A stretch of 64,000 nucleotides of DNA from assembly GCA_035765775.1 (NCBI GenBank), contig DASTWV010000057.1:27160-91159 (forward strand), in the 5' to 3' direction. Below, one piece after another: positions 2,222-57,313 of the stretch. This DNA is from Actinomycetota bacterium (lineage in GTDB: Bacteria > Actinomycetota > CADDZG01 > JAHWKV01 > JAOPZY01). Below the pieces are notes generated by a model. It made no database searches and had not been told where the DNA came from. It saw nothing but the letters and a program-made list of their open reading frames with translations. Every line of letters starts with the position of its first letter. Within the stretch, counting starts at the first letter, position 1. Made by a program: the position numbers and the translations under genes.

Positions 2222-2225
2222 CGGT

Positions 2226-6114: not shown

Positions 6115-6266
6115 GCCCACTCCGTTCTCGGTCCCCCCGGCCCGGCGGTCCAGCACGCACAACAGAAGAATGGCATCTCCTGAACCGTGTACGTGCCTTG
6201 AAACATGTAGTCCAGTAACTCTCCTTCTATAGGGGGTTATGGAGAAGCCGCAGGTACGATGCTGCC

Positions 6267-7454: not shown

Positions 7455-8111
7455 TTGACGCCCCCGGCTGGTCACCGGAGCGGTGCCGATTTCGTGACGA
7501 TGCTGCGAGGCGGAAAAAACGGCAAAGGGTTCGTGCACCATCATGGGAGGATGCACCATGCCGACCACGTCGCCCTGATCCGGGCCGGTGTCGAAGCTCA
7601 CCCGGGCACCTGGGCCGACCTGGGCTCAGGCCGGGGGGCCTTCACCCTCGCCCTGGCGGACCTCCTCGGACGCATCGGAGGCCCGGCCGGGACGATCCTT
7701 TCCATCGACCTCGACGCCGGCGCTTTGCGCTCGCAGGAGGAGGCGATGCGGCGGCGTTTCCCGGCCGCCCAGGTGGTCTACCGGCGGGCCGACTTCACCG
7801 ACCCCGCTGCCCGGGGCATCACGCCGGCCTCCCTCGACGGGCTGCTCATGGCGAACTCGCTGCACTTCATCCGCAGCCCGCGATCGGCCCTGGTGGATCT
7901 GGTAGCCCTCCTGAAACCGGGCGGCCGCTTCGTCCTGGTGGAATACGACACCGACTCGGGCACCACCTGGGTGCCGTACCCGCTCTCGTTCGCCACCTGG
8001 GAGCGGTTCTCGGCCGAGGTTGGGTTGCAGGCGACGCACCTGGTGCACCGGGTGCCGAGCCGCTTCCTGGGCCATATCTACTCGGCGGCAAGCGACGCCC
8101 CTGGAAGGTAG
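7455..8111 (+). CDS. Class I SAM-dependent methyltransferase
   Basis: Motif I DLGSGRGAFTLALA and motif II/post-I region LVEYD. Start may be the internal ATG at ~7500 or ~7551. Its TAG stop lies 10 nt before the DNA methyltransferase ATG. Confidence 0.7.
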   Translation: MTPPAGHRSGADFVTMLRGGKNGKGFVHHHGRMHHADHVALIRAGVEAHPGTWADLGSGRGAFTLALADLLGRIGGPAGTILSIDLDAGALRSQEEAMRRRFPAAQVVYRRADFTDPAARGITPASLDGLLMANSLHFIRSPRSALVDLVALLKPGGRFVLVEYDTDSGTTWVPYPLSFATWERFSAEVGLQATHLVHRVPSRFLGHIYSAASDAPGR

Positions 8112-8121
8112 CGTGGCCGCC

Positions 8122-13978: not shown

Positions 13979-14937
13979 TGCCTCGGTGGCGGTGCGGCCC
14001 CACCCCCGGGTGCACTGTGGCGAAGCGCTGTGGTGCGTCGGGCAGCGTCGTGATGCGGTAGTATTGCCCGGTTCGGGGCCGCTGGGCTCGTATAAAAAAC
14101 GTTCAGACGAGTCGCATAGGGCTCACCTACGCCGCTCCGGCGGCGGCCAGGGCGCCTGAGTGGCCCTCAAGAGGCATTGAGCGGCGGCCGCGGCTCCGCC
14201 GTGAAGCTCCGCGTGGTCCTGAGCCGCCCGTTGGTCAACTGCTGGCAGGAGGCCTGGCCGTCGATCCAGAGGTCGGCATCGCTGCGGCCGTGGCAGGCGA
14301 GGGCGATGAGCACATGGTCGGCCCCGGCGCACGCCCAGGCGTCGCTGCCCGGCCGGGCGGTGCGGGCGCGGTCAGCCGCGGCGGCCACCCCGCCGGCCTG
14401 GGCGGCGGTGAGATCGAGATGCCGTCCAGATCCCCACCGAGGCCCCCGGAGCCGTAGGAGCACACCAACCCGGCGGTCGGGTCCTGCACGGCCATCTCGA
14501 ACCAGAAGCCCAGGCCGGGGTTGCTGACGCCCCGCTGGACCAGAACGATTGGCGGACGAAGAGCCCCGCCACCACCCGGATGACCAGGAGGAGGGCGAGG
14601 GCGGTGGGGCGCACCCGATGACGCGTGGCCAAGCGGCGGAGCAAGAACCATGTATGCGCCCTGCCGTGGACCATGCAGGTAATGTCGGACCTTAGCAACG
14701 GGCGCTAAATAGCGCCACCGTGTCAAGTTCGGAGGATAGATTCGAGCCGGACCGGCTTGCTAGACCCCCCCAGCCCTCTTTGTGCATGGCTGAGCAGGAT
14801 AATCCTGCTCAGGGCGGCACAAATGGAGGGCGATCTGCAGGTTCGGGCTCATGCGGTCAGCAGTGTGTTGGGTCCCGGCCGGCGGAGTACACTTTCCCGA
14901 CACTCCGCGCGAGATCAGGCGTCAGCTTGGTGGCCCT

Positions 14938-15390
14938 ATGCCTAGGCTGTTCGGCAGGCGATCAACCTCGGCCGTGGCCCTTGTGGTTGGCAGTCGGAGA
15001 AACTATGTGCACGTGGTATCCCTTATCGTGCTCCTCGCGTCTCTGGCTGGGACTTCCTGTGCTCACCGGACTCATGCAGCTTCTCGGGCAACGATAACTG
15101 GACACATTTGGTTCGCCGGCCCGCGCGTGTTCTTCGTTGTTCCAGGAACCGTATGGGCTTATGAACGGAACGTCCAGGGTGAGGTCGTAGCCTCCTCTGA
15201 GACTGACACTCACGGCACTTTTAGCCTTTCGGTGCCGGCACCAGGGGTTTACGTCATCGGGGGGGACTCGCCAAAATTCAATGGGGGGAGTCCATCCCCC
15301 GCCCGTCCCGTGGCAGCGTGCGTGAGCTCACCGGTGCGCGTTTCTCCTCGGACAAGCGCCACTGTACGAGTGCTTTGTCAAGCTCAATAG
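14938..15390 (+). CDS. Small secreted protein with carboxypeptidase-regulatory-like (transthyretin-fold) domain
   Basis: Internal ATG MPRLFGRR, then the signal-like segment VVSLIVLLASLAGTSCA. The following ITGHIWFAGPRVFFVVPGTVWAYERNVQGEVVASSETDTHGTFSLSVPAPGVYVIGG resembles a CarboxypepD_reg/Cna-B-type beta-sandwich. The gene sits in a stretch of distinctly lower GC (~58%) next to tRNA genes. Confidence 0.5.
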   Translation: MPRLFGRRSTSAVALVVGSRRNYVHVVSLIVLLASLAGTSCAHRTHAASRATITGHIWFAGPRVFFVVPGTVWAYERNVQGEVVASSETDTHGTFSLSVPAPGVYVIGGDSPKFNGGSPSPARPVAACVSSPVRVSPRTSATVRVLCQAQ

Positions 15391-15558
15391 GCCGACCTGG
15401 GGCGCCCTGCGGGAATTGTCATTTGCGGGACTCGTAACTCTACCGCCCGATACCCTCGGGCGGATCTGGCCTCAATGTGGCCTGACGTTTCCGAGCAGGC
15501 CGTGGAGTCAGGGCCGCCGATCTGACGAAACTGGTCTGTGACCAGCGGAAATGCTCCG

Positions 15559-15632
15559 TACCCCCGACGGGTTTCGAACCCGTGATCTCCGCCTTGAGAG
15601 GGCGGTGTCCTAGGCCGCTAGACGACGGGGGC
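15559..15632 (-). tRNA. tRNA-Glu (anticodon CTC)
   Basis: The reverse complement GCCCCCGTCGTCTAGCGGCCTAGGACACCGCCCTCTCAAGGCGGAGATCACGGGTTCGAAACCCGTCGGGGGTA folds as a cloverleaf with a GTTCGAA T-loop. The anticodon loop is CTCTCAA. Close to E. coli tRNA-Glu. Coordinates are ±1. Confidence 0.85.
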
Positions 15633-15654
15633 CTGTGCCACTTCTGACGATCGG

Positions 15655-15727
15655 CTGCCGGGCAAGGACTCGAACCTTGAGCCTTCTGGGCCAGAACCAG
15701 ACGATCTGCCAATTGATCTACCCGGCA
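15655..15727 (-). tRNA. tRNA-Gln (anticodon CTG)
   Basis: The reverse complement TGCCGGGTAGATCAATTGGCAGATCGTCTGGTTCTGGCCCAGAAGGCTCAAGGTTCGAGTCCTTGCCCGGCA has a U1-A72 pair typical of bacterial tRNA-Gln, anticodon stem TCTGG/CCAGA, anticodon loop TTCTGGC and T-loop GGTTCGAGTCC. Coordinates are ±1. Confidence 0.85.
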
Positions 15728-15857: not shown

Positions 15858-18290
15858 CTAGCGGGCTGCCCAGGCCCGGCTCCGGGGTCGAACCGGCGCC
15901 GGCTCCCCGGCCGGTTCCTCGACCTCGGCGCTCTGAGCGCTCGGCATCCCTGCCCACCAGAAGCCGTTGCCCGACGAGCCGTTGGAGGGAGGCCGGGGCG
16001 GGCGGGCTTCGGCGTCCCCGGTCGTTGCCTGCCGGGGAGAGGACTCCATCGCGTCCGCCACTGGGTGGTGAGATGCGGGCACGGGCGCTGGAGGCTCGGT
16101 CGCAGCCAGGATGTCCTCGACGTACACGATGCCCGGGATCTCCTCGGGCACCTCCGCCGCTGCCGGCCGGCGGTCGGTCGACCTGGGACGGGCGGCCGGA
16201 GCAACCGGGTCGGCCGCCCGAGCCGCGGGTCGTCCCGCGGCCGTCCGGGCCGAGGCGGCCGGTCGGGCGGCCGGGCGGTCGATCACCGGAGCACGCCGGG
16301 CCGCCGGCTCGAAGAGTTCGACGGGCAGCTGGCTCGGGAACTCGGGCGCCGCTGGTGGCACGGCGACTGGGCCGGCGGCCGCCCCCACCAGCACCGGCAC
16401 GGGAGTCGCCACCGGAGCCGGCGCCCGCACAGGCGCACGTTCCGGCCGGACAGGCTCCACGACCGGCCGGAACGGCTCCACAGCCGGCCGCACAGCCTCC
16501 GCAGCCTCCCCGGGCTCCAGGGCCGGGGTCGGCACCAGCACAGGGGCGGGGGCCAGCACTGGCCCGGCGAGCCGCTCCGCCGCCGCCCGCTTCTCGATCT
16601 CCTTCGACTTGCGGTGCGACCACCGGATGATCGGCCGCTCCATGCAGTAGTACGACACCGACCCCACGATCAGCGCCCCGCCGCAGGCGAAGGCGAACAT
16701 CTTGAGGAAGTCGCCCGAGGTGGCGTTAGGCGTCCAGTGCAACGTTTTCAGGGCATACCCCACGAACAGCAGGTGCGTGAGGTACAGCCCATAGCTCACG
16801 TCGCCCAGCTTCTTGCTGATCCAGTTTGTGAACGGGAACTGCGCCCATGTCGGCGCCAGAGCGGTCGCCAGGACCAGCACCGTGAAGCACACCGCCACCG
16901 GCGTGGTGCCGATCCAGTGGTCGAAGGGCCCGGACTTGAAGGCCACGTCCCGGGCTCCCGCCTGGTTCATCCACCACAGCACGCCCGACAACGATGCCGC
17001 CTCCACCGGCACCCAGGCCAGGGAGGGGATCTTGAACTTCAGGTTGCCGTTGCGGATCTGGACGAAGACGAAGGCCGCGGTCATGCCGAGCGCGAAGTGG
17101 GCGGTGTAGGTGGGGAACTGTGTGACCAGGATCTCCTTGACGAACTGGGGCGACTTCAGCCCGGCCCAGTGCGGCAGGGGGAACCAGCCGTGGGTCCCGA
17201 TGGTGCGCCAGGTGGCGGCGATCACCTCGGCGATGCCCAGGCCGACGAAGGGGTGCTTGCGGTACCACCCGGCGATCACCGGCAGCAGGGCGTAGAACAC
17301 CACTTCGATGGCCAGCGTCCACACCGCACCGTTGACGAAGAAGCCCTCGGGATAACCGAGCGCCAGCCCCAGGCTGTGCTGAGCGAAGGTCAGGTGGAGC
17401 AGCAGGGTCATCGAGCCCACCCGGGTGAAGGGCGTGACGTGCACCGGAACGGTGACCACCCAGGGCAGCAGGAGCAGGGTGGCGATCACCGCCAGGTAGT
17501 AGGCGGGCACGATCCGGGCACTCCGGCGCAGGGCGTAGGCCTTCTTGCTCCCGAAGTTGCCCTCCGCCACCATGGGCAGGAACAGCAGGAAGCCGCTCAA
17601 GATGAAGAAATAGTCGACGCTGACGTACGAGGCGACGATCAGGTGGAGCAGGAACTTGTTCGACAGGTGGGGCCGGGCAGCGGCATACAGGCAGTGGCAG
17701 GCCACGACGCCGATCGCCGCCAGCCCGCGGAAGCCGTCGGCCGACGGGACCCGCAGCCGGCCCTGGGCCCGTTTGCGGCGCCCCAGCCGGCGAGGCGCCT
17801 GACCTGCCGGTACCGATCCGCTGCCCTGGGGCGCGGTCTCCGCCGGCGGTGCATGGCCGTTCTGGGGCGGCGGGCGGAACCCGCTCCCGACCGGTGGGCG
17901 GATCTGGGCGGGCACGAAGGCGGAAATCCGGGCGCGCCCGGGCGCCGCCACCCTTTTCGCATGGCCATTGCCGTTGCCAGTGCCATTGCCGGTGCCATTC
18001 CCATTGGCCGCCCCATGGGCGTGACCGTTCGATCCCGCCGGGGCATGCCCGTTGGAGGAGACCGGGGCATGCCCGTTGGGCGCCGTCGAGCCGTGCCCGT
18101 TCCTTCCGGGCAACGCCCCGGGCAACACCCCGGGTACCCCGCCCAGCGGGCTGTACCCGTTCCGCCCCGTGGGGCTGCCGGGCTTCGGCCGGAAGGGGAT
18201 GTCGGGGTTCTCGGCCAGCAGGCGCGGACCCTTGGACGGCGAGCGCCGGGCGGTCTTCTTGGGCGCCGGGGCCGGCGGGCGGAGGCTCAC
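15858..18290 (-). CDS. Acyltransferase-3 family membrane O-acyltransferase with low-complexity N- and C-terminal extensions
   Basis: The AT3 core has FRGLAAIGVVACHCLYAA and VSVDYFFILSGFLLF with ~10 TM helices. The N-terminal ~200 aa is Asn/Gly/His/Pro-rich (NGHAPVSSNGHAPAGSNGHAHGAANGNGTGNGTGNGNGHA) and the C-terminal ~270 aa is Pro/Ala-rich. The likely start is a GTG overlapping the FkbM stop (GTGA) at ~18290. The track ATG at 18407 would overlap FkbM by 120 nt. Confidence 0.8.
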   Translation of the reverse strand: MSLRPPAPAPKKTARRSPSKGPRLLAENPDIPFRPKPGSPTGRNGYSPLGGVPGVLPGALPGRNGHGSTAPNGHAPVSSNGHAPAGSNGHAHGAANGNGTGNGTGNGNGHAKRVAAPGRARISAFVPAQIRPPVGSGFRPPPQNGHAPPAETAPQGSGSVPAGQAPRRLGRRKRAQGRLRVPSADGFRGLAAIGVVACHCLYAAARPHLSNKFLLHLIVASYVSVDYFFILSGFLLFLPMVAEGNFGSKKAYALRRSARIVPAYYLAVIATLLLLPWVVTVPVHVTPFTRVGSMTLLLHLTFAQHSLGLALGYPEGFFVNGAVWTLAIEVVFYALLPVIAGWYRKHPFVGLGIAEVIAATWRTIGTHGWFPLPHWAGLKSPQFVKEILVTQFPTYTAHFALGMTAAFVFVQIRNGNLKFKIPSLAWVPVEAASLSGVLWWMNQAGARDVAFKSGPFDHWIGTTPVAVCFTVLVLATALAPTWAQFPFTNWISKKLGDVSYGLYLTHLLFVGYALKTLHWTPNATSGDFLKMFAFACGGALIVGSVSYYCMERPIIRWSHRKSKEIEKRAAAERLAGPVLAPAPVLVPTPALEPGEAAEAVRPAVEPFRPVVEPVRPERAPVRAPAPVATPVPVLVGAAAGPVAVPPAAPEFPSQLPVELFEPAARRAPVIDRPAARPAASARTAAGRPAARAADPVAPAARPRSTDRRPAAAEVPEEIPGIVYVEDILAATEPPAPVPASHHPVADAMESSPRQATTGDAEARPPRPPSNGSSGNGFWWAGMPSAQSAEVEEPAGEPAPVRPRSRAWAAR

Positions 18291-19711
18291 GAGGGGCCCT
18301 CCCCGGCCAGGGTCACCCGCACCCACGCCACGGCCACACCCAGCTCGAGGTCCCCGTCCTCTGAGGCCGACGCCGGTGACCCGGGCGACGGGTTCACCGA
18401 GCTCCACAACCGGGTGGCCGACGTCCCCACCATCACCCGGGTGCTCCCCCTCCGGGACAGCGCCCCCTCCGGGACCACGCCGGCGTACAGGGTGCCGTGC
18501 CGGTGGGGCGAGGCGGTCAGTGCCACGTTCCGGCCCCCGACCGACACCGCCAGGCTCCCCTCGACCTCCGGGGTGACGGCCGCCGCCACCAGGAGCTCGA
18601 CGCGGGACCCGGCCCCCACCACCGCCGGCAGGTCGATCCAGGCGTCCCGGCCGGGCCCACTCCAGCGCAGGCCGAGGTCGCCCACCACCTGGGGCGGGTG
18701 CCAGCCCCCGCCGGCGAAGGCGGGGTCGGTCAGGCTGATCTTCACCGTCCCGGGCCGCCGGAACGACGAGACCGGGGCCGGGGCCGCCGGGGCCGGAGGC
18801 GCTCCCGGCGACGCCAGAGCCGCCGAAATCCGTTCGGCCACCGCCGGCGGGGCGCCATCCCGGGCCAACCCGAGGGCCAGCCCGGACACGTCGTGGAATC
18901 CCAGCGCCCCGGTGATGCAGGCGTCGCGCACGAGCTGGTGCCAGCCGAGACCGGCGGCCGGGTAGGCCACCTCCCGGCGCAGGTAGTAGGCGTTCGCCCA
19001 GAAGAGCTGGCCGGGGCCGCTGTCGAACCGGTGGGCGCCGTCATCCAGCTGCCACACGTCGGGCGTGCGCCAGCCGAGGTCGGCCCCCGCCTGCCCGTAG
19101 TGGGCGAGGTCCCGCAGCCGCCAGAGGACGAAACCCCGCCGGCGCAGGAACCGGTCGACGTCGCCGAATAGCGGCGCCCCGGCGTAGAGCTCGTTGAACT
19201 CGACCTCGACCTCGACCGCCCGCACCCCGGCCAGGGTCGCCTGGGCGCCCTCCAGGACGCCCAGCTCCGACCCCTGCGTATCGACCTTGATGACATCCAC
19301 CCGCGCGATCCCCTCAGCGGCGCACCACTCGTCCAGGACGGCCAGCTCGACCATCACCGAGGACTCCGGGGTGATCACCCCGAGGCCCGGGTGCCGCTCG
19401 TAGGCCGCCGCCGAAGGCGGGTAGAGCGAGGAGCACGCCGGCTGCCGGGTGACGTGCAGGGTGGCCACCCCCGAACGGGGGCCCAGCGCCACCGGCGCTA
19501 CCCGGTGCGGCGCCCCCGACCGCCGGTGGAGTTCCTGCAGCCGCCGGCACTCCTCGGCGTCCGGCTCGAAGCCGATGGCCACATAGCGGTCACCCAGGTC
19601 GTCCCAGGTGGAAGCAAACCCCCACCGGGCGCCCACGTCAACCACGACGATGGGGTCGTCGAGGAGGGGGGCGATGGCGGCGGCTCGCGAGGAAGGTAGA
19701 GGTAGATCCAA
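18287..19711 (-). CDS. FkbM-family SAM-dependent methyltransferase with C-terminal extension
   Basis: Motifs VVDVGARWG and IKVDTQGSELGVLEGA (Methyltransf_21/FkbM), followed by a ~200-aa C-terminal beta-rich extension. Confidence 0.8.
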   Translation of the reverse strand: MDLPLPSSRAAAIAPLLDDPIVVVDVGARWGFASTWDDLGDRYVAIGFEPDAEECRRLQELHRRSGAPHRVAPVALGPRSGVATLHVTRQPACSSLYPPSAAAYERHPGLGVITPESSVMVELAVLDEWCAAEGIARVDVIKVDTQGSELGVLEGAQATLAGVRAVEVEVEFNELYAGAPLFGDVDRFLRRRGFVLWRLRDLAHYGQAGADLGWRTPDVWQLDDGAHRFDSGPGQLFWANAYYLRREVAYPAAGLGWHQLVRDACITGALGFHDVSGLALGLARDGAPPAVAERISAALASPGAPPAPAAPAPVSSFRRPGTVKISLTDPAFAGGGWHPPQVVGDLGLRWSGPGRDAWIDLPAVVGAGSRVELLVAAAVTPEVEGSLAVSVGGRNVALTASPHRHGTLYAGVVPEGALSRRGSTRVMVGTSATRLWSSVNPSPGSPASASEDGDLELGVAVAWVRVTLAGEGPS

Positions 19712-19824
19712 TTGGGCACCTCTCGGGGCGGCACCGGACGGCGCATTCTACATGTCACGCATCATCGGCAGGCATGACCGTTTTGCTAAGCGCCAATCCG
19801 GCGCGGCCTTGCTAGCCTCCCGCC

Positions 19825-22347
19825 ATGCGCATCGGCATCGACTACCAGATCCTCGCCCTGGGGCCGGAGCTCATCACCCGGGGGATGGGCCGCTACACCC
19901 AGCAGCAGCTGCGCGAGGTCCTGGCGGTGGACCGGGACAACGAGTACCTCCTGCTGTGCGAGGCGGGGGCCGACCTCTCGCTGATCGATCCCGCCGTCCT
20001 GGAAGCCCCCAACGTCGACCTCGCCTGCTACCCGAAACCCCGCGCCGAGGTGACCGAAGCGACCACCCTCCAGCTGGCCGAGCACTACCTGGCCTGGCTG
20101 GAGCGCCAGGGCCTCGATCTCTACCACGCCACCGCCCCGCTCATGCTGACCGGCCCCCCGCTGGTCCGCGTGGACACCTGCCCCACAGTCGTCACCCTCT
20201 ACGACCTCATCCCGCTGCGCTACCCCGACCGCTACTACGTCGAGGACCCCCTCCGCCGCCAGTACGAGCGGGGCCTCGGGTTCCTGGCGACCGCCGACCG
20301 GCTCCTCGCCATCTCGGAGTACGCCCGGAGCGACGCCGTGGCCCTCATCGGCTACCCGGAGGAGCGCATCGACAAGGCCTGGCCGATCGCCGACGACGTC
20401 TTCCGGCCGCTCCCCGACCACCTCGTCCGCAAGCTGCTCAGCGTGGTCTCCAGCCGGATCCGGATCCCCGAGCACTACCTGCTCACGGTCAGCCACATCC
20501 ACTACTCCAAGAACCTCGACACGCTGCTCCGGGCGTACGCCGGCCTCCCCGAGGCCCTGCGCACCCGGCTGCCGCTGGTGCTCTGCTGCCACCTGGACCA
20601 GGCCAGCCTGAACGCCGTCGGCAGCCTGGCCTTCGACCTCGGCATCAGCGCCGACCTCGTGATCACCGGTGGCGTGTCCGACGCCGAGCTCGCCGCCCTG
20701 TACAACCGGGCGACGCTGGTGGTCCACCCGTCCCGGGCCGAGGGCTTCGGGTTCCCGGTGCTGGAGGCGATGCGCTGCGGTGCCCCGGTGGTCACCACCA
20801 CAGCGTCGTCCCTGCCCGAAGTGGCGGGCGACGCCGCGCTCCAGGTGGACCCCGAGGACGCCGGCTCCCTCGCCGCCGCCATCCAGCGGGTGGCCGGCGA
20901 CCCGGCCCTCCAGGCCACCCTGCGGGCGAAGGGCTTCGTCCAGGCGGAGCGCTTCAACCGCCACCAGCTGGCCGAGGCCACCCTGGCGTGCTACCAGCGG
21001 GCCGTCGCCCTCCCACCGGCGCCCGGAGGACCGGGACCCGCAGGCCGGCGGATCGCCCTGTGGACTCCCCTGCCGCCGCAGGCCACCGGCATCGCCGACT
21101 ACTCGGCAGAGCTCCTGGACGGCCTCGCCACCCGGTGCGAGGTGGACGTCTTCGTCGACGGCGGGTACCTCCCGGCGGGAGCCGTCCTGCAGCGCCACCA
21201 CATCCACCACGCCTCCGGCTTCGTCCGGCGCAACGCAGCCCGCCCGTACGACGCCGTGCTCTACCAGGTGGGGGCATCACCCTTCCACGCCTACATGACG
21301 GCGGCGTTCGAGGCCCACCCGGGCATCGCCGTGCTCCACGACCTCATCTGGAGCAACGTCGTGTACACCGAGATCGTCCACGAGACGGGCGACGCCCCCC
21401 GGTTCCACCGCATGCTGGCCGACCTGCACGGCGCCCGGGCGGTCGAGGAGCTGCGCCGGCTCGCCTTCGAGGACCAGGACGCGGTCTGGGACTTCTTCGG
21501 GCGCTACCCGATGCTCGACCCGGTGGTGAACCCGAGCATCGCCCAGATCGTGCACTTCCCGGACGCCGCCCGGGAGCTGCTGGCTGCCTTCCCGGGCAGC
21601 CACCCCTGGGTGGTGCCGATGGGGGTGGCCGATCCCTATGCGGGCCAGCCGGACCTGGACCAGGCGGCGGCGCGCACCGCCCTCGGGATGGACCCGGAGC
21701 GCTTCGTCGCCTCCCTCGTCGGCCTGGTCCACCCGCTCAAACGGGTCGAGTCCTGCCTGTGGGCCATCGCCGCCCTGAAGGAGCAGGGCCGCCACCCCCT
21801 CCTGGTGGTCGCCGGCCCGTGTTACGACCAGGCCTACCTGGAGCGGCTCTCCCACCTCGGCTACACGCTGGGCCTGGGCGACACCCTGGAGTTCACCGGC
21901 CGGCTCCCCCGGGAGGACTTCGACCGGCACATGGTGGCCGCCGATGTGATCGTCAACCTGCGCGCCCCGGTCCACAAGCACATGTCGGCAGTGCTCATGC
22001 GCTCGGTCGCCGCCGGCAAGCCGGTGGTGCTCAGCGACCTCCCGGAGTGGCGCTTCCTGCCCGGGTCGTTCTGCTGGCGGGTCCCCGTGGCGGGCGAGGC
22101 CGAGGCGGTGGCCACCGCCCTCGGCGCCCTGGAGGACGACCCCGGGCGCCGCCGGGCCATGGGTGAGGCCGCCCGCGCCTGGTACCTGGCCGAGGGCACC
22201 GCCGAGCGGATGGCGGAGCGCTACCTCGGGGTGGTCGATGCCGTGATCGGCGGCCGGGGCCAGCCTCCCCCTGCCCACCGGGGCGCCCCCCAGACGGATC
22301 GATACAATTCGCCGGTGCCCGGACCGCTGACCCCCTCTTCCGCATGA
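19825..22347 (+). CDS. Tandem GT4-GT4 glycosyltransferase (two complete family-1-fold GT domains in one 840-aa protein)
   Basis: Domain 1 (~1-400) includes LTVSHIHYSKNLDTLLRAY, GFGFPVLEAMRCGAPVVTT and the E-x7-E region. Domain 2 (~410-840) includes GLVHPLKRVESCLWAIAAL and SAVLMRSVAAGKPVVLSDLPEW. Resembles WbdA-type dual-domain mannosyl/rhamnosyl transferases. The stop overlaps the next gene's start (ATGA). Confidence 0.85.
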   Translation: MRIGIDYQILALGPELITRGMGRYTQQQLREVLAVDRDNEYLLLCEAGADLSLIDPAVLEAPNVDLACYPKPRAEVTEATTLQLAEHYLAWLERQGLDLYHATAPLMLTGPPLVRVDTCPTVVTLYDLIPLRYPDRYYVEDPLRRQYERGLGFLATADRLLAISEYARSDAVALIGYPEERIDKAWPIADDVFRPLPDHLVRKLLSVVSSRIRIPEHYLLTVSHIHYSKNLDTLLRAYAGLPEALRTRLPLVLCCHLDQASLNAVGSLAFDLGISADLVITGGVSDAELAALYNRATLVVHPSRAEGFGFPVLEAMRCGAPVVTTTASSLPEVAGDAALQVDPEDAGSLAAAIQRVAGDPALQATLRAKGFVQAERFNRHQLAEATLACYQRAVALPPAPGGPGPAGRRIALWTPLPPQATGIADYSAELLDGLATRCEVDVFVDGGYLPAGAVLQRHHIHHASGFVRRNAARPYDAVLYQVGASPFHAYMTAAFEAHPGIAVLHDLIWSNVVYTEIVHETGDAPRFHRMLADLHGARAVEELRRLAFEDQDAVWDFFGRYPMLDPVVNPSIAQIVHFPDAARELLAAFPGSHPWVVPMGVADPYAGQPDLDQAAARTALGMDPERFVASLVGLVHPLKRVESCLWAIAALKEQGRHPLLVVAGPCYDQAYLERLSHLGYTLGLGDTLEFTGRLPREDFDRHMVAADVIVNLRAPVHKHMSAVLMRSVAAGKPVVLSDLPEWRFLPGSFCWRVPVAGEAEAVATALGALEDDPGRRRAMGEAARAWYLAEGTAERMAERYLGVVDAVIGGRGQPPPAHRGAPQTDRYNSPVPGPLTPSSA

Positions 22348-23576
22348 CCGTGTCGTTCGCCGAGCTGCCCGCCGTCCTGCGGGCCGCCGAGGACCGGGTC
22401 CGCGCCCTGCACGAGGAGCTCGCCCGGGGCGTCACGGCCGTCGACGAGGCGCTGGCCGCCATTGACCGGGACCGGGACGCCGCCGACGAGGCCCTCGACG
22501 CCGTCCCGGCCATCGGGCGCCGCCTGGCTGGCCGCCTGGCCGCCGCCGACGTGTCCGCCCCAGCCGTCCCCCTCGACGGTCCGGGCTGGGAGCCGGTGCC
22601 GGTGGCCGTGGGCGACGGCCTCGCCTTCACCGTGATGCTCGACACCGCCATGCACGACCCGGTGACCGCCGGGCTCGCCACCGGGCGGACCTCGGACGAG
22701 CCCCTCATTGCCCTGATGCTGGAGTTCGTGCAGCCGGGCGACTGGGTCATCGACCTCGGCGCCCACGTCGGCACCTTCTCGCTGGCCGCCGCCGCCCGGG
22801 GGTGCGGCGTCCTGGCCATCGAGGCGTCCCCCGCCAACGCCGCCCTGCTGCGGGCCAGCGCCGCCCGCAATGGGTTCCACGACCTCCGGGTCATCCACTG
22901 CGCCGCCACCGACACCGCCGGCCCCCTCTCCTTCGAGGCCAACGGCCCGTGGGGGCACATGACCTGGGGCGGCGAAGGGGAGACCCACACCGTCACGGTG
23001 CCCGGGGTGCCCATCGACCAGCTGCTGGGCGCCTTCGCCTCCCCCCCGCCCGCCTTCATCAAGATGGACGTCGAGGGCGCCGAGCTGAAGGCGATCGCCG
23101 GCATGCGGGCGCTGCTGTCCGGGCCGGGCGCCCCGCCGGTGCTCTTCGAGTCCAACGGCCACGCCCTGGCCCTCGCCGGGGCCACGCCCAACGAGCTGCA
23201 GGCCTGCTTCGAGGAGCTGGGCTACGCCACCTACCTGATCGAGGGCCGCCGCCTCACCCGGCTCTCCCCGGACGAGGTCCAGGTGGTCACCGTCGCCGAC
23301 TGCCTGGCGATGAAGCGCCGGCCCGCCGGTCTCGACGCCTGGGAGGTCCGCATCCAGTCCACCGAGGAGGATGCCCTGCTGCGCATCACCGCCGAGGCCG
23401 CCCACCCCAACCCGGACTGCCGGGCGTACGCCGCCCGGGCGCTGGAGGGGCTGGACCCCGAGCTCCTGTCCCACCCGCTGGTGACCGGGGCGCTGGCCGA
23501 CCTCCGGGCAGATGCCGACCCCGTCGTGGTGGCGGCAGCCGCCTGGTCGCACCCCGGCGAGGGGGCGCAGCCGTGA
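22344..23576 (+). CDS. FkbM-family SAM-dependent methyltransferase
   Basis: Motifs VIDLGAHVGTFSLAAA and IKMDVEGAELKAIAG. 410 aa. Confidence 0.8.
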   Translation: MTVSFAELPAVLRAAEDRVRALHEELARGVTAVDEALAAIDRDRDAADEALDAVPAIGRRLAGRLAAADVSAPAVPLDGPGWEPVPVAVGDGLAFTVMLDTAMHDPVTAGLATGRTSDEPLIALMLEFVQPGDWVIDLGAHVGTFSLAAAARGCGVLAIEASPANAALLRASAARNGFHDLRVIHCAATDTAGPLSFEANGPWGHMTWGGEGETHTVTVPGVPIDQLLGAFASPPPAFIKMDVEGAELKAIAGMRALLSGPGAPPVLFESNGHALALAGATPNELQACFEELGYATYLIEGRRLTRLSPDEVQVVTVADCLAMKRRPAGLDAWEVRIQSTEEDALLRITAEAAHPNPDCRAYAARALEGLDPELLSHPLVTGALADLRADADPVVVAAAAWSHPGEGAQP

Positions 23577-23578
23577 CC

Positions 23579-24697
23579 ATGGTCTCCTACGCCCAGAACG
23601 GTGAGGACGTCCTCCTGGACCGCTGCTTCCCCCGGGGCAAGGCCGGCTTCTACATCGACGTCGGCGCCAGCGACCCGTCGGTGGCGTCGGTCACCCGCCA
23701 CTTCTACGACCTGGGCTGGCACGGCATCAACGTCGAGCCCACCACCGGCTCGTTCGAGCGGCTGCAGGCCGAGCGCCGCCGGGACATCAACCTCAACGTG
23801 GCGGCCTCCGACCGCAGCGGCGAGCTCACGTTCCACGAGTTCCCCGGCTACGACTCCGGCGTGTCCACCGCCTCCGAGGTCAACTACACCCGCCACCGGG
23901 ACGCCGGCCTCACAGCCACGGAGCGCACCGTCGCCGCCCTGACGCTGGCGGAGATCTGCGAGCGCCACGTACCGGGCCCGATCGACTTCCTGTCCGTGGA
24001 CGTCGAGGGCCACGAGGAGAAGGTGCTGGCGGGCGCCGACTTCACCCGTTGGCGCCCCCGGGTGGTCCTGGTGGAGGCTACCGAGCCGACCACCCTGGAG
24101 GAGGGCATCGACCCGCCCCGGCTGCTGCAGCCCAGCCACGAGTCCTGGGAGCCGATCCTGCTGGAGGCGGGCTACCTGTTCGCCGCCTTCGACGGCATCA
24201 ACCGCTTCTATGTCCGCAAGGAGGACGCCGACCTCGCGCCGGTCCTGGCGGTGCCGGTGAACTTCCTGGACGGCTACCTCACCTACGCCCACTTCAAGTT
24301 GCAGAAGGACCTGGAGATGCTGCGCAGCGAGCAGTACGCCGACTGGGTGGCCAACCAGACCCTGCGGGCCGAGTACCAGTCCCTCTCCGGCGAGCTGGCC
24401 GTGCTCCGGGCGGCGTACGAGAAGGTGGAGCGGGCTCTCACCACCATGCGGGCGGCCTACGAGCACCTCCGGGGCGAGGTGGCGCAGGCGGAACGCGTCG
24501 CGGGCGACGCGCTCGGCGCGGTCGCCGACGCCCGGGCGCAGGTGGAGCACGTCAGCCCCCTGGCCCTAGCCGTCGCCCGCCGGCTGACTGCCGCCTCCAG
24601 CCGCTACCCTGGCGCCGCCCGGCCGCTGAAGCAGGCGCTGCGGGCCGGCCGCGACCTGAAGCGTTCCATCGACGGCAGCAAGGGGGGACCCCGATGA
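23579..24697 (+). CDS. FkbM-family SAM-dependent methyltransferase with C-terminal coiled-coil
   Basis: Motifs YIDVGASDPSV and LSVDVEGHEEKVLAGA. The C-terminal ~120 aa is heptad-like (LQKDLEMLRSEQYADWVANQTLRAEYQSLSGELAVLRAAYEKVERALTTMRAAYEHLRGEVAQAE). An alternative GTG start overlaps the previous stop (GTGA). Confidence 0.8.
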   Translation: MVSYAQNGEDVLLDRCFPRGKAGFYIDVGASDPSVASVTRHFYDLGWHGINVEPTTGSFERLQAERRRDINLNVAASDRSGELTFHEFPGYDSGVSTASEVNYTRHRDAGLTATERTVAALTLAEICERHVPGPIDFLSVDVEGHEEKVLAGADFTRWRPRVVLVEATEPTTLEEGIDPPRLLQPSHESWEPILLEAGYLFAAFDGINRFYVRKEDADLAPVLAVPVNFLDGYLTYAHFKLQKDLEMLRSEQYADWVANQTLRAEYQSLSGELAVLRAAYEKVERALTTMRAAYEHLRGEVAQAERVAGDALGAVADARAQVEHVSPLALAVARRLTAASSRYPGAARPLKQALRAGRDLKRSIDGSKGGPR

Positions 24698-25452
24698 TCG
24701 ATCTGCCGGCACGCCAGGACGACCCCAGGCTCCAGGGCTGGTACCACACCATCGAGCTCGGCAACGGGCTGGTGTCCGACGGGTTCTTCGACCACCGCCC
24801 GGTGGTGCACCGCTACGGCATCCCCGAGTCCCTGCGGGGCAAGGAGGTGCTGGACGTCGGCACGGGCGACGGCTTCTTCGCCTTCGAGATGGAGCGCCGG
24901 GGCGCCGCCCGGGTGACCGCCATCGACGTCGCCCGCATGAAGGACTGCGACTGGGTTCCCAATATGCGCTACCGGCTGGCCGACGCCGCCATGGGCGACC
25001 CGTGGCCCCGGCACTTCCGCCTGGCCCACGCCATGCGCCGCTCCCGGGTGGACTACAAGCCGTGCAACGTGTACGACCTGTCGCCCTACACCGTCGGCAT
25101 GTTCGACATCGTGTTCTGCGGCTCGCTGTTGCTGCACCTGCAGAACCCGTTGGCCGCCCTGATCGCCATCCGGTCGGTCACCCGGGAGTACGCCATCATC
25201 GAGACCGCCATCGAGCCGGAGTGGGACGAGAAGTACCCCTCCCGGCCGGTGCTGTCGTTCGGCTACCAGAAGGACGAGGTGGTGCCGGGCGAGAACAACG
25301 CCTTCTGGGTGATGAGCTCCTGCACCCTCGAGAAGATGATCCGCTACGCCGGCTTCGCCGAGGTGGAGCGCCAGGGCACCTTCATGCTGCCGCCCCACAC
25401 CGACGTCACGGCGTGCTCGATGATCGCCAAGCCGCCGCCGGCCTGGGGCTGA
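24694..25452 (+). CDS. Class I SAM-dependent methyltransferase (CmoB/DUF1698-like)
   Basis: ATG overlaps the preceding stop (ATGA). The N-terminal WYHTIELGNG is followed by motif I VLDVGTGDGFFAFEM and by DIVFCGSLLLHL. Confidence 0.8.
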   Translation: MIDLPARQDDPRLQGWYHTIELGNGLVSDGFFDHRPVVHRYGIPESLRGKEVLDVGTGDGFFAFEMERRGAARVTAIDVARMKDCDWVPNMRYRLADAAMGDPWPRHFRLAHAMRRSRVDYKPCNVYDLSPYTVGMFDIVFCGSLLLHLQNPLAALIAIRSVTREYAIIETAIEPEWDEKYPSRPVLSFGYQKDEVVPGENNAFWVMSSCTLEKMIRYAGFAEVERQGTFMLPPHTDVTACSMIAKPPPAWG

Positions 25453-25828
25453 CGGCCCGCCGGGTACGGCGCAGGAGCAGGAACAGGGTCAGCACCAGCA
25501 CCGGCAACACGGTGCAGTGGTAGGCGATGTCGATGGCCGGCCCGCCCGAGATCGTGATGGTCACCCCGACCAGGAATCCGGCGATGGCGAAGCCGACGGC
25601 GGCCACCACGCCCGCCCACGACCTGGCGGGCGCCCGCCAGCCCGCCCCGGCGCCCACGGCGAGCACGGCGCCGATGACCGCCTCGGCGATCCCCGCGGCA
25701 CTCGGCCGGTAGGGCGGCGTCCCGCCCCCCACGACCCCGCTCAGGTGCAGGGTGGACATCACCGCCAGGGACGCGGCCTCGGCGGCCATGAGGATGGCTG
25801 CGGAGCGGGGGACGCGGCGCTCGTTCAT
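25406..25828 (-). CDS. Small membrane protein (3-4 TM)
   Basis: Hydrophobic helices include AAILMAAEAASLAVMSTL, AVIGAVLAVGAGAGW, VVAAVGFAIAGFLVGVTI and TVLPVLVLTLFLLL. Convergent with the methyltransferase above and overlapping its 3' end. Confidence 0.45.
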   Translation of the reverse strand: MNERRVPRSAAILMAAEAASLAVMSTLHLSGVVGGGTPPYRPSAAGIAEAVIGAVLAVGAGAGWRAPARSWAGVVAAVGFAIAGFLVGVTITISGGPAIDIAYHCTVLPVLVLTLFLLLRRTRRAVSPRPAAAWRSSSTP

Positions 25829-25949
25829 GGAGCCATTGTCGGGCCGGCGGAGCGGCGCGTCGTCGTCCTGCGGGCCCCATTGCCCCTACATCTCTGGGCG
25901 TAGGCGCGGCCGGGGTGCTCGGCCCAGCGCCGGACCTCGGGCATTCCGG

Positions 25950-27900
25950 CTTTGGAGAGTCTGTGAGTGCTGGAGGTAGCTATACAGGCCGTCGCAGAAT
26001 CACGCGCCATAGAGCGGGCTTCACCCCTCGATGGGTCACATCCGGAGGCTCCTAGGCCGCCACAAGGACATCCCGCCGGAGGATGTTTCTGCGCCCGGTC
26101 CCGTGCAAGACGCGCCTGAGCGAGCGGAGAGCGCCGGAGGTGGCCGGGGAACCTGCCTTCCCGTGCCGCATCCGTGGCGAGTGCTTCTTGCCATACAGCT
26201 TCAGCAGGTTGTTGCACATGGCCAGCAGGATCCACTCGTCGTTGGCGCCCTGCTCGCCCATGCGCAAGAACTGTCGGTAATGGCGATTCCATTTGATCTG
26301 GCCGAAGACCGGCTCGACGATGTACTGGCGCTGGGCGTAGGCCGCCACCCCCTCCTCGGTGAGCAGGCGGTGCGTCATGGCGTCGATCGGCGAGCAGCCC
26401 TCGGGCGGGTCCCCCACCCGGTAGCCCTCCTCGGCCTGCTGGTGGCGCAGCTTGTAGGCCTTGGACGTGGCGATCATCCGGGGAGGGCCGGCGGCGGTCA
26501 GGTTGGCGGTGCTCAGGTAGCCGGCGTCGGCCAGCACCAGGTCGAACGAGTCGGTGATGCCCGCCAGCTCCAAGTTGGCGAGGCCGAGGACCACCATCGG
26601 CTGGTAGGAGCCGGTGTCGGCGGCGCAGGTGGTGACCTGGGCGCCCACGATGATCTGGTCCGAGCTCACCAACGCCTGGGCGTTGAAGGCCTGGAGGTAG
26701 CGGCCGGCCTGGTCCACCATGATGGCGCTGGCGGGGTCGGTGGTGTTGATCTTCTCCTCGGCCGCCCGGGCGGCGTCCTGGGCGGCCGCCTCGGCCAGCT
26801 GGGCCTGTGCGGCGGCCACCCCCCGGTCCAGGTTTGGGTGGCGTCCTCCCGGCTTGCGGCCCTGGGCTGCCGCCTCCGCCTCCACCGCCTGGCGGCGGGC
26901 CTTGACCGCCTCGGCCTGTTCTTTGGCGACCTCCAGGTCGGCTTCGGCCTCCGGCAGGGTGGGCTGGTCGCGGGTGGTCAGCCGAGGATCGACCCGGGGT
27001 GCCCGCCGGGCGGTCTCCCGTCGGCGCTCGGTGCGCTCCGCCAGACCCTGGCGTTCGGCGTCCAGGGCGTCGGCGTGGCGCTGGTTGACCAGCTCCAGCG
27101 CGGCGTTCAGGTGGGCCTCCCGGGACCCGGGCTCGATCAGGTGCTCGGGCAGCTCGTCGCCCCGGGACTGGCCGAGGCGCTGGTCGTCCTCGGCGTCGGC
27201 CAGCTCACCCTGGCTGACCAGCTCGGCAGCCTTCTTGGTGGCCTCGGCCTTCAACTCGGCCAACTCCTTAGCGATCTGTTTTTTGGTGCGGTTGGCCCTG
27301 AGCGAGGCGCGGGCACGGATCTTGGTGCCATCCAGGGCGACTGTGCCCGCGATCGTCAGCCCGGCGGCTTGGCACAGCATCAGGATGTCGCTGAACAGCG
27401 CCCGGATCTGGGGAGCCTGCTCGGCGCGGAAGCGGGCGATCGTGGCGTGGTCGGGCACCTGGTTGGCGGCGATCACCCGGAAGGCGACGTCGACCTTGCA
27501 GGCTGCCTCGATCGCCCGGGAGGAGTACACCCCGGTGCAGTAGGCGTAGAACAGCAAGGTGAGCAGCATCTCGGGGTCATAGGCGGCCCGGCCGGGACCC
27601 CAGTTGGGGTGGCGGCCGTGCAGCTTCCAGGTCTTTTGCTTGAGCTTGTCGACGACGCTGAGCACGAACCAGGCGAGGTGGTCCGGGGGCAGCCAGTCGA
27701 GCAGGCTGGGCGGCATGAGGAACGGGGTCATGCGATCCGTGGAGACATAGTGTTTGGCCATGCCCCCATTCGCGCACACTTCCGGGGGAAGGTGTTGGAT
27801 TTCGCGATTGCTAGTTTGAGGCCTCGATTTTGCGACACCCTGATAGGTGGCTCAGCGTCACAGGAAACTCCACTAGTGGCCCTGGCATCCATCTCCAAGC
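25950..27900 (-). mobile_element. IS1182-family insertion sequence (boundaries approximate)
   Basis: Contains the 26052..27779 transposase ORF. An imperfect terminal inverted repeat, GCTTTGGAGAG at ~25950 and CATCTCCAAGC at ~27890, flanks ~1.95 kb. The element is inserted between a membrane-protein gene and a REP13E12-like element. Confidence 0.6.
26052..27779 (-). CDS. IS1182-family DDE transposase
   Basis: The N-terminal MTPFLMPPSLLDWLPPDHLAWFVLSVVDKL is the IS1182 N-terminal signature. Also present are YDPEMLLTLLFYAYCTGVYSSRAIE, a central coiled-coil and a C-terminal DDE region (ADAGYLS...). 575 aa. Confidence 0.8.
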   Translation of the reverse strand: MCANGGMAKHYVSTDRMTPFLMPPSLLDWLPPDHLAWFVLSVVDKLKQKTWKLHGRHPNWGPGRAAYDPEMLLTLLFYAYCTGVYSSRAIEAACKVDVAFRVIAANQVPDHATIARFRAEQAPQIRALFSDILMLCQAAGLTIAGTVALDGTKIRARASLRANRTKKQIAKELAELKAEATKKAAELVSQGELADAEDDQRLGQSRGDELPEHLIEPGSREAHLNAALELVNQRHADALDAERQGLAERTERRRETARRAPRVDPRLTTRDQPTLPEAEADLEVAKEQAEAVKARRQAVEAEAAAQGRKPGGRHPNLDRGVAAAQAQLAEAAAQDAARAAEEKINTTDPASAIMVDQAGRYLQAFNAQALVSSDQIIVGAQVTTCAADTGSYQPMVVLGLANLELAGITDSFDLVLADAGYLSTANLTAAGPPRMIATSKAYKLRHQQAEEGYRVGDPPEGCSPIDAMTHRLLTEEGVAAYAQRQYIVEPVFGQIKWNRHYRQFLRMGEQGANDEWILLAMCNNLLKLYGKKHSPRMRHGKAGSPATSGALRSLRRVLHGTGRRNILRRDVLVAA

Positions 27901-27978
27901 GCCGCGCCAGTGACGCCGGGCGCCCGTCGCAGGGTGAAGAGGGTTCGGCTGGGTGGAGGGTGGAGGGAAGGCCCGGCC

Positions 27979-29505: not shown

Positions 29506-29811
29506 GCGATGGGCAACGGATCTTGAAGATTTTCTTACGGTAGCTCGCTCGATCCCGCTGACAGCAGCGGTTCCGCGTCGCCGTTGCCCACTTCGTGGAA
29601 GATCTGGGGCCGGGCTGGCCCTTCCGGCCGGGCCTCAGGGTGAAGGGTATAGAAGGTGGAGGGAACCGGCGACATCATGGACCTTCCCCCCAGATGGGCG
29701 GGCCAGCTGGCAGTTCGGGCCCGGCGTCACGCCGGCGAGGCTCAGGTCGTGCGGCGCCCGATCCGCACCCACGACGTCTCCCGCTCCCGGGAGCGACGGC
29801 CTGACCCGCCG

Positions 29812-57310: not shown

Positions 57311-57313
57311 GGC

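Follow-up and report, generated by a model that had tools for sequence, protein, structure and literature searches.

The six genes at positions 15858-25452 of the window (the whole 64-kb stretch of actinobacterial DNA that was analysed) combine glycosyl transfer with four methyltransferases and a membrane acyltransferase, raising the question of which product they make together and what its methyl groups would be for. Most likely, the cassette builds a methylated and acylated cell-surface polysaccharide; the best reading is that this glycan is polyprenol-linked, exported by an ABC transporter, terminated by a methyl group and further methylated.

Organisation and conservation of the cassette

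The six open reading frames form two divergent, tightly coupled operons. The minus-strand operon runs from the FkbM-family methyltransferase A (18287-19711, 474 aa; PF05050 FkbM, E 8e-18) to B, a membrane acyltransferase of the AT3 family (15858-18290, 810 aa; PF01757 Acyl_transf_3, E 2e-26). The plus-strand operon contains, in this order, the two-module GT4 protein C (19825-22347, 840 aa; two stretches of Glycos_transf_1, E 1e-42), the FkbM-family methyltransferase D (22344-23576, 410 aa; PF05050, E 1e-14), a third FkbM protein, E, with a heptad helix behind its head (23573-24697, 374 aa; PF05050, E 1e-25) and, as its last gene, the class-I SAM methyltransferase F (24694-25452, 252 aa; Methyltransf_11/23). 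All six have a strong third-position GC bias: GC3, measured from stop to stop, is 0.92-0.95 in the three filter-passing ORFs, and the coding-frame plot gives 0.9-1.0 for the others. The first-pass annotation had described every junction as ATGA or GTGA, and this is borne out by all four overlaps as read from the sequence: GTGA for A/B (the GTG start of B overlaps the stop of A), ATGA for C/D, GTGA for D/E and ATGA for E/F. The NCBI start of E is an ATG 6 nt further downstream (372 aa); as orthologues open with MTMVSYAQ, the GTG start is favoured. The divergent intergenic region of 113 bp (19712-19824) is the presumed promoter region; a sigma-70 consensus scan found no match in it and is uninformative for an actinobacterium with 72% GC, and a scan for promoter and terminator consensus sequences found nothing, as expected at this GC content.

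L093 (C 65% identical) and L007/L008 (60%), all uncultured Actinomycetota, have the six genes in the same order and with the same overlaps, and because this recurs in independent assemblies, the arrangement is not due to chance. Among eight distinct relatives, C, D and E are present in all, F in six and A in five. Of 18 top matches of the E family on contigs of at least 20 kb, 14 co-locate with a top match of the C or A family, with contigs of identical size serving as the proxy for co-location. The cassette is flanked by tRNA genes and an IS element; a test for an integrative island detected neither direct repeats of tRNA 3' ends nor an IS-bounded repeat, and mobility is suggested by the non-syntenic flanks only.

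A, D and E score well above the cut-offs of both FkbM models, with 65.5, 55.4 and 91.3 bits for PF05050 (cut-off 22.7) and 72.5, 79.1 and 76.4 bits for TIGR01444 (cut-off 37.7), respectively. A consists of a methyltransferase domain (residues 1-300), a Pro/Ala linker (301-316) and a C-terminal beta-sandwich (about 320-470; AlphaFold pLDDT 85.6). The beta-rich extension proposed in the first-pass annotation is therefore real, with about 150 instead of 200 aa, but it is not unusual, as the whole length of A is kept in the homologues among the matches listed. The beta-sandwich has no match in Pfam, in PDB sequences or to a small Wzt_C profile alignment, and the only fold matches of A outside methyltransferases are chains of GH146 arabinofuranosidase; judged by sequence, the domain appears to fall into no described family.

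B matches the AT3 model with 93 bits (cut-off 31; PF01757 at residues 183-536). Its orthologues have 405-424 aa and align, with 44-55% identity, to a conserved core of about 390 aa alone (residues ~175-565, positions ~16600-17770). Both flanking parts are absent from orthologues: the first ~170 aa are a low-complexity stretch of Asn, Gly and His, with tandem repeats in the DNA at 17960-18134, and the last ~230 aa are rich in Pro and Ala. No SGNH domain was found in B by Pfam and, since the C-terminal tail has no Pfam match and is missing from orthologues, B is probably an AT3-only enzyme. The aberrant length of B and the position of the cassette between the tRNA genes and the IS element make a local rearrangement possible.

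D has a helical N-terminal segment (residues ~1-90) and a HEAT-like C-terminal segment (weak HEAT_2 match, E 0.009). It lies directly downstream of C in all eight relatives and is, in most of them, fused behind an additional class-I (Methyltransf_11) domain (728-790 aa). An apparent Rosetta-stone fusion of this domain, D and E in L002 (1158 aa) proved, when the three frames were read, to be interrupted by a frameshift within D and a stop codon ahead of E, and was rejected as an assembly artefact. F has orthologues of 57-76% identity in six of the eight relatives tested, and a gene of the same size is found at the same position in L093. It had been called CmoB-like, but the similarity is to class-I enzymes in general: F reaches 41.9 and 39.9 bits with the CmoB equivalog models (cut-offs 209 and 275), compared with E 1.5e-9 for Methyltransf_11 and 29.6 bits for Methyltransf_9, the CmoB family, and its PDB match is confined to the SAM-binding motif. 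The gene content described at first pass is otherwise confirmed.

A degenerate glycosyltransferase module and a putative chain terminator

The N-terminal module of C is canonical, with the EX7E motif at E306-E314 (EGFGFPVLE). In the second GT4-like module, both glutamates are lost and replaced by K718 and R726 in all 28 aligned family members, and S721 and R726 are invariant across this alignment. C has one canonical active site and is assumed to be a polymerase; the second module is a possible pseudo-glycosyltransferase scaffold, which would make C a possible case of such a module serving as scaffold. C and the other GT4-GT4 protein of the window have the generic donor-binding motif alone in common. 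Scanning species-representative genomes with patterns from the alignment of C proved unselective, as 79 of 80 loci turned out to be ordinary single GT4 genes, and was discarded; it identified no cultured carrier and its sole close locus was an already known relative.

E consists of an FkbM head (residues 1-237), a single heptad helix of 88 residues (238-325), a conserved SPxxLxxARRLT motif and an amphipathic helix (346-367). The AlphaFold monomer prediction (pLDDT 86.5) has the helix 238-325 followed by two short helices, consistent with the C-terminal extension noted at first pass, which is however conserved across the E family and not a peculiarity of this protein. The hydrophobicity of the long helix has its periodicity peak at 3.5 residues, and the C-terminal helix is cationic and amphipathic (muH 0.7-0.84; net charge of +6 for residues 346-374). 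Across 114 homologues, head and tail motif are fixed and the tail is conserved, while the spacer varies between 88 and 127 residues. The length steps are 3, 4, 6, 8 and 11, not clean multiples of seven, and spacer variation was therefore rejected as proof of a molecular ruler.

A catalytic head followed by a coiled coil and an amphipathic membrane helix is the recognised layout of chain terminators in ABC-transporter-dependent pathways (PMC11231755, PMC3482155). By analogy, E is predicted to be a chain-terminating methyltransferase, and with this match in layout it appears more likely that at least one methyltransferase of the cassette is a terminator rather than a tailoring enzyme. The best BLASTP match between E and WbdD of E. 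coli HS has an E value of 0.04 and covers the coiled coil only, with no homology between the catalytic domains; at sequence level, the likeness seems to be one of architecture, not of descent. The same tail is found on a class-I methyltransferase head in P0374, encoded by a gene that overlaps the end of a C-like glycosyltransferase gene by 4 nt, indicating that it is the tail and not the head that is tied to the C family. A search with the tail alone among 1.8 billion representatives returned only 18 matches; by single-sequence comparison, a wide distribution of the tail is thus not detectable. An FkbM head starting with SYAQNxEDVLL, a heptad helix and an SPxxLGxARRLT tail can serve as a signature for finding further terminators.

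Genomic context and the proposed fate of the glycan

Four of the eight relatives have Wzm and/or Wzt with the Pfam domain Wzt_C within 10 kb of the cassette; the domain was found on Wzt of L002, L005, L090 and L091. Wzt of one relative aligns over its full length to Wzt of E. coli O9 (33% identity, E 7e-66), and of 31 metagenome loci with a length of at least 10 kb that carry more distant members of the E-type FkbM subfamily, 18 also have a Wzt homologue. Further neighbours in relatives are YfhO, additional GT4 and GT2 genes, nucleotide-sugar epimerases and, in one of the eight, an LCP ligase. In the three closest relatives, L093, L007/L008 and L001 (the same sequence in a second assembly), neither Wzm/Wzt nor a priming transferase lies nearby on contigs of 5.7-22.7 kb; the one LCP is that of L007. 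Within the 64-kb window, five Wzm/Wzt queries matched only an ABC-F protein in tblastn, no LCP was detected, and no polyprenol-phosphate priming transferase was found among the Pfam-scanned ORFs. In model ABC-dependent systems, the priming transferase gene is often unlinked.

We consider it about an even chance that the cassette supplies the core enzymes for polymerising, terminating and modifying a lipid-linked glycan that is made at the cytoplasmic face of the membrane, exported by a Wzm/Wzt-type transporter and displayed on the envelope. The sequences themselves show the gene content, the translational coupling, the conservation of the cassette, the domain layouts and, in relatives, the linkage to Wzm/Wzt and LCP; from these we infer what each enzyme does, including termination by E, as well as a scaffold function for the second GT4 module and, for this genome, export. 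Enzymes outside the cassette would supply the primer, and C would lengthen the chain with its single canonical GT4 active site, the degenerate second module acting as scaffold. E would be anchored at the membrane by its amphipathic C-terminal helix and reach the chain end by its coiled coil; methylation of the non-reducing terminus would stop growth, set the chain length and leave a mark that the carbohydrate-binding domain of Wzt could read. Further O-methylation, of the terminal residue or of the chain, may come from D, F and A, and O-acylation from B; that the glycan is multiply O-methylated and O-acylated, as first proposed, is a reasonable prediction from the methyltransferases and the AT3 enzyme. 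More tentatively, E-type FkbM proteins could be unrecognised and widespread methyl-cap terminators, with a portable ruler-plus-anchor tail that docks on the degenerate second GT4 module and the extra methyltransferases producing a multiply methylated terminal sugar. Several points speak against a terminate-then-export reading: the window has no exporter, priming transferase or LCP, and no exporter is seen near the cassette in its closest relatives either; E is not similar to WbdD in sequence; its coiled coil is predicted for a monomer and its spacer steps do not follow heptads cleanly; C has a single canonical active site; the locus may have been rearranged; and four methyltransferases exceed the needs of termination.

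The same surplus can be read as polymethylation all along the chain with no capping, the helix of E serving for oligomerisation or as membrane tether and export taking any route, including a Wzx/Wzy-type one or one using the Wzc-type system nearby. A cap does not need four methyltransferase genes, nor the up to seven methyltransferase domains that relatives have, the tight translational coupling to the glycosyltransferase suggests stoichiometric co-synthesis, and the window offers a Wzc-like/Wzb pair about 10 kb from the cassette in place of an ABC exporter. This pair belongs to the ugd/Wzc-like/Wzb/GT4-GT4 genes which, as annotated, are present at 1-6830; their proposed link to the cassette is not supported: no synteny connects the two, and relatives pair the cassette with Wzm/Wzt, not with a Wzc-type system. 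Wzx, Wzy or Wzc adjoin it in no relative examined, the Wzt of relatives has the C-terminal binding domain that reads terminal marks in the systems studied (PMC11231755), and head, coil and amphipathic helix of E correspond to the description of a terminator. We regard chain-wide methylation as rather unlikely.

It is improbable that the cassette serves to tailor glycolipids, glycosylated natural products or glycoproteins (S-layer glycans, for instance) instead of a free wall polysaccharide. The FkbM family owes its name to a polyketide O-methyltransferase and GT4 enzymes also make glycolipids, but neither the window nor the flanks in relatives have PKS, NRPS or lipid-synthesis genes, and the LCP of L007 suggests that the glycan is attached to peptidoglycan. 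With Wzm/Wzt, glycosyltransferases, LCP, YfhO and epimerases as neighbours in relatives, the initial view that the cassette acts on a glycan and not on a polyketide-type small molecule is upheld. Gram-positive S-layer glycans can be assembled by an ABC-dependent pathway with a methyl cap, and a protein would alter the final acceptor only, not the logic of assembly.

Least probable of all is a cytoplasmic polysaccharide of the mycobacterial MMP/MGLP type that is retained in the cell: the source is an actinobacterium, the cassette has several O-methyltransferases, the window has no exporter and the top PDB sequence match of C is mycobacterial ManT (7QSG, E 4e-15), but this match is limited to residues 265-396, the generic donor-binding half, the MMP cluster combines a single-domain GT4 with the hydrolase MmpH and with MeT1 (PMC9883506) while the cassette has no hydrolase domain and encodes a polytopic membrane AT3, and relatives have Wzm/Wzt, LCP and YfhO, all of which makes the precedent cited at first pass a weak one.

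Comparison with known systems

The MMP cluster (ManT, pMeT3, MeT1, MmpH) has in common with the cassette an actinobacterial GT4 next to several sugar O-methyltransferases, and no solved structure is closer to C in sequence than that of ManT; unlike the glycan proposed here, its product is cytoplasmic, and its hydrolase serves recycling (PMC9883506). The cluster also lacks AT3, a coiled-coil enzyme and a linked exporter. In WsaE of Geobacillus stearothermophilus, a methyltransferase is fused to rhamnosyltransferase modules for an ABC-dependent S-layer glycan with an O-methyl cap. Compared by description, this resembles those C homologues that are fused to a class-I methyltransferase (1215-1470 aa); sugar and glycosyltransferase families are probably different.

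For FkbM proteins in O-antigen or Wzt contexts, the literature searched gives annotation-level mentions only. The LPS cassette of Xanthomonas oryzae BXO1 type (wzm, wzt) has an FkbM-family methyltransferase and an acetyltransferase with an ABC-transporter-type O-antigen (bioRxiv 10.1101/2022.03.02.482478). By annotation and description, to which this comparison is confined, it differs in its Gram-negative host, in having a single FkbM protein and in that no coiled-coil role is described.

The terminators of Klebsiella pneumoniae O7, O4 and O12 (ORF6-O7, ORF7-O4 and WbbB) share with E, as proposed here, a terminating activity at the far end of a coiled-coil ruler, with catalysis by a methyltransferase-kinase or a Kdo transferase instead of FkbM. 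One of them has an accessory beta-sandwich described as CBM-like (PMC11231755), comparable to that of A, which is however separate from the coiled-coil protein E.

The cassette also resembles the system for the polymannose O-antigens O9a/O8 of E. coli (= O3/O5 of Klebsiella pneumoniae), made with the polymerase WbdA, the terminator WbdD and Wzm/Wzt with a carbohydrate-binding module by the logic of terminating first and exporting then (PMC3482155, PMC11231755). Here too, an 840-aa two-module GT4 protein lies beside a methyltransferase with head, coil and a membrane/recruitment region, the N-terminal modules of C and WbdA share 31% identity (279 aa, E 2e-36), and Wzt of relatives has a C-terminal binding domain and, in the case aligned, resembles O9 Wzt over its full length. 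Unlike WbdD, E has a non-homologous, FkbM-type head and no kinase; WbdA keeps EX7E in both modules (positions 317 and 750), whereas C has lost it in the second; the cassette has three further methyltransferases and AT3; and the host is an actinobacterium without LPS, with the exporter unlinked in the window. The cassette is a candidate for the genes behind O-methylated wall sugars in actinobacteria. If the proposed reading is true, the terminate-then-export logic of Gram-negative O-antigens extends to wall glycans of uncultured Actinomycetota, and the chain-length ruler and terminal-mark checkpoint of E. coli and Klebsiella also operate in these soil bacteria, with an unrelated methyltransferase head.

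The six-gene cassette and its surroundings

The GC content of the window is 72% and ORF lists are therefore full of spurious frames; genes were chosen by third-position GC (GC3 and frame plot). The stretch 15858-25452 contains six genes with a marked GC3 bias in the coding frame (0.92-0.95 in the three genes that pass the filter, by frame plot in the others). On the minus strand are A (18287-19711, 474 amino acids), with a Pfam FkbM methyltransferase domain, and B (15858-18290, 810 amino acids), with an Acyltransferase-3 (AT3) domain. The plus strand encodes C (19825-22347, 840 amino acids), a GT4 protein with two Glycos_transf_1 stretches, the FkbM proteins D (22344-23576, 410 amino acids) and E (23573-24697, 374 amino acids), and F (24694-25452, 252 amino acids), a generic class-I methyltransferase. 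The junctions within the two operons read GTGA, ATGA, GTGA and ATGA, and the operons diverge from a 113-bp spacer. Together, Pfam assignments, GC3, junctions and spacer confirm the gene set and the two divergent, coupled operons described by the first-pass annotation; F, called 'CmoB-like' there, scores far below the CmoB cut-offs.

In the AlphaFold model of A (pLDDT 85.6), the FkbM domain spans residues 1-300 and is joined by a disordered linker to a beta-sandwich of about 150 residues. The sandwich has no Pfam match, no sequence relative in the PDB and no profile similarity to Wzt_C, the carbohydrate-binding domain of Wzt ATPases. Beyond methyltransferases, the only fold matches of A are GH146 arabinofuranosidase chains (E 3e-4 to 6e-4), given for A without alignment positions; a role of the sandwich in binding substrate is conjecture. 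D begins with a helical segment and ends in a weakly HEAT-like one. B is, judged by its sequence, an AT3-only acyltransferase: its orthologues have 405-424 amino acids and the same coupled 'MS' start. The window copy is longer by about 170 residues at the N-terminus, rich in Asn, Gly and His and encoded by short DNA tandem repeats (17960-18134, periods 6/18, 24 and 12), and by about 230 Pro/Ala-rich residues at the C-terminus (15858-16560), where the frame signal is ambiguous. Both segments are missing from the orthologues and may have arisen when repeats expanded and the original stop codon was lost.

On one side, the cassette is bounded by a tRNA pair (15558-15727), tRNA-Glu(CTC) and tRNA-Gln(CTG) at 15558-15632 and 15653-15727 on the minus strand, 131 nt past the stop of the AT3 gene. 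On the other side (26052-29634) are an IS transposase (DUF772 and DDE_Tnp_1_6; 26052-27851, minus strand) directly downstream and a DUF222-HNH endonuclease gene (27979-29634, minus strand), followed by housekeeping aspS and thrS. No att-like repeats were found around the cassette, and the tRNA ends are not repeated on its far side. About 1.4 kb adjoining the tRNA genes (14100-15550) have a lower GC content (0.62-0.66), no coding-frame GC3 signal, no Pfam match for their ORFs and no Rfam match, and may be decayed or foreign DNA. A small hydrophobic ORF (25406-25885, minus strand, GC3 0.94) is convergent with F and shares 47 nt with the 3' end of that gene; it matches no family and is not kept beside the cassette in relatives. 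Elsewhere, the window encodes a class-I methyltransferase followed by an N6/N4 DNA methylase (7449-8997, plus strand; the ORFs scanned include no obvious restriction partner), a protein of about 1018 amino acids with C-terminal Trans_reg_C and BTAD domains (AfsR/SARP-like) and a long N-terminal region without assignment (45759-48815, plus strand), and genes of a phage-tail-like contractile injection system with baseplate J, CIS tube, two gp19-type tube proteins and sheath (52337-63819, minus strand).

Conservation in uncultured relatives

Metagenomes contain many homologues of C, E and A, conserved over their full length; most belong to uncultured Actinomycetota and Acidimicrobiales and a few to Chloroflexota and Dormibacteria. 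In two relatives (loci L093 and L007/L008), all six genes stand in identical order and with identical 4-nt overlaps; their C proteins are 65% and 60% identical to the window copy, respectively, and the flanks of the cassette are unlike between the window and L093. In all of eight distinct loci, D directly follows C and E is present; F occurs in six of them, A in five (always divergent from C) and a B-type AT3 in two to three. D of most relatives has an extra N-terminal Methyltransf_11 domain and reaches 728-790 amino acids. Among 18 E-family matches on contigs of at least 20 kb, 14 are on a contig identical in size to one with a C- or A-family match, which is a rough proxy for co-location.

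C homologues of 1215-1470 amino acids (P0076, P0091-P0094, P0103, P0112, P0113, P0115 and P0116) mostly also have class-I methyltransferase domains, by Pfam or by source name; P0103 shows none. This suggests that fusions of glycosyltransferase and methyltransferase exist among C homologues of Chloroflexota and Acidimicrobiales. An apparent D-E fusion of 1158 amino acids in L002 (13400-15750), from a long-contig Acidimicrobiia MAG, was rejected: the ORF was called across D and E, and the split frames probably reflect indel errors of the assembly. In this locus, the D homologue is split over two frames, and the A homologue is likewise split.

The glycosyltransferase C and the FkbM protein E

C and WbdA, the polymerase of the E. 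coli O9a-type O-antigen pathway, both have 840 amino acids and two GT4 modules. The N-modules are 31% identical over 279 residues (E 2e-36), while the C-modules do not align in register. The EX7E signature of the N-module (E306-E314) is kept in all 28 aligned homologues; the C-module has K718...R726 in its place, with S721 and R726 invariant. WbdA, unlike C, has EX7E in both modules, and C is thus not a dual polymerase of the WbdA type. Instead, C combines a single canonical active site with a second module that is conserved but probably non-canonical and that we infer to be a scaffold. The solved structure closest in sequence is the mycobacterial mannosyltransferase ManT (7QSG), of the methylmannose polysaccharide (MMP) pathway, with a match limited to the generic donor-binding half.

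The AlphaFold model of E (39 sequences, pLDDT 86.5) has a compact FkbM head (residues 1-237), one unbroken helix (238-325) and, at lower confidence, two short helices. Hydrophobicity along the long helix peaks at a period of 3.5 residues, and an xxLxxLR heptad register is visible over about ten heptads; within the family, this spacer varies from 88 to 127 residues, in steps that are not clean heptads. For the last helix (346-367) the hydrophobic moment is 0.7-0.84, and the stretch 346-374 at the C-terminus carries a net charge of +6. The family conserves the head and, in its C-terminal part, the motif SPxxLGVARRLTxxSxRxP, after which comes the basic helix. Such a layout of head, coiled-coil and membrane helix is characteristic of glycan-terminating enzymes in ABC-transporter-dependent pathways, where export hinges on the Wzt binding module reading the terminal mark (Whitfield laboratory; PMC11231755; PMC3482155). 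The likeness of E to the O9a terminator WbdD is one of architecture only, with no sequence similarity. A search with the tail alone identified P0374, a protein of 532 amino acids with a class-I Methyltransf_11 head and a coiled-coil and SPxxxGIARRLT tail as in E; in locus L175 (2-1905), its gene has a 4-nt overlap with a C-like glycosyltransferase gene, at the 3' end of the latter, indicating that it is the tail, rather than the head, that is tied to the C family.

A candidate pathway for a surface glycan

Half of the eight relatives have an ABC-2 permease and/or a Wzt ATPase with a Pfam Wzt_C domain within 10 kb of the cassette; one Wzt among them can be aligned from end to end with that of E. 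coli HS (serotype O9) (33% identity, E 7e-66). Nearby genes in relatives also encode an LCP ligase, single-module GT4s, a second AT3, an SGNH lipase, YfhO, GT2s and sugar epimerases; PKS or NRPS genes are not found beside the cassette in any relative examined. A metagenome scan with the E alignment identified more distant members of this FkbM subfamily (35-55% identity across 80 loci). Of the 31 such loci of at least 10 kb (35-52% identity), 18 have a Wzt homologue, most of them together with the permease Wzm. The 64-kb window has neither Wzm nor Wzt, its sole ABC match being an ABC-F protein at 37-39 kb, and linkage to an ABC exporter is thus a property of the family, not demonstrated for this genome. 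The second polysaccharide locus of the window (2-6827) encodes a partial two-module GT4 with EX7E-like motifs in both modules, a UDP-glucose dehydrogenase, a Wzz/ParA-type (Wzc-like) protein and a low-molecular-weight phosphotyrosine phosphatase. The first-pass annotation read these genes (1-6830) together with the cassette, but we see nothing that ties the two; unrelated genes lie between, and the glycosyltransferase is only generically similar to C.

We consider it highly probable that the cassette product acts on a glycan rather than on a small molecule, and fairly likely that this glycan is ABC-dependent. The best-supported full reading, to which we give a probability of about one half, is that the cassette is the core of an ABC-transporter-dependent, polyprenol-linked surface glycan pathway: C would lengthen the chain and E would cap it by O-methylation and fix its length, with further methyl groups from D, F and A, acyl groups from B, and export and attachment functions encoded elsewhere in the source genome.

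The main rival, methylation along the whole chain with no capping role, is favoured by the number of methyltransferases, but the layout of E and the linkage to the Wzt binding domain in relatives argue against it; we regard it as rather unlikely, and it is not exclusive with capping. A cytoplasmic polysaccharide like the mycobacterial methylmannose or methylglucose polysaccharides, the precedent named in the first-pass annotation, is very improbable given the membrane AT3, the exporters and LCP of relatives and the absence of the MMP hydrolase from the cassette (PMC9883506).

The terminate-then-export logic of the capping pathway is already well known from Gram-negative O-antigens, and FkbM genes within Wzm/Wzt cassettes have been noted by annotation (bioRxiv 10.1101/2022.03.02.482478; PMC10888714). 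The cassette differs from described systems by an FkbM-type head on the coiled-coil scaffold of a predicted terminator, by a tail that E has in common with a protein with a class-I methyltransferase head, by a predicted polymerase partner with a degenerate second module, by a conserved multi-methyltransferase operon, and by its actinobacterial setting.
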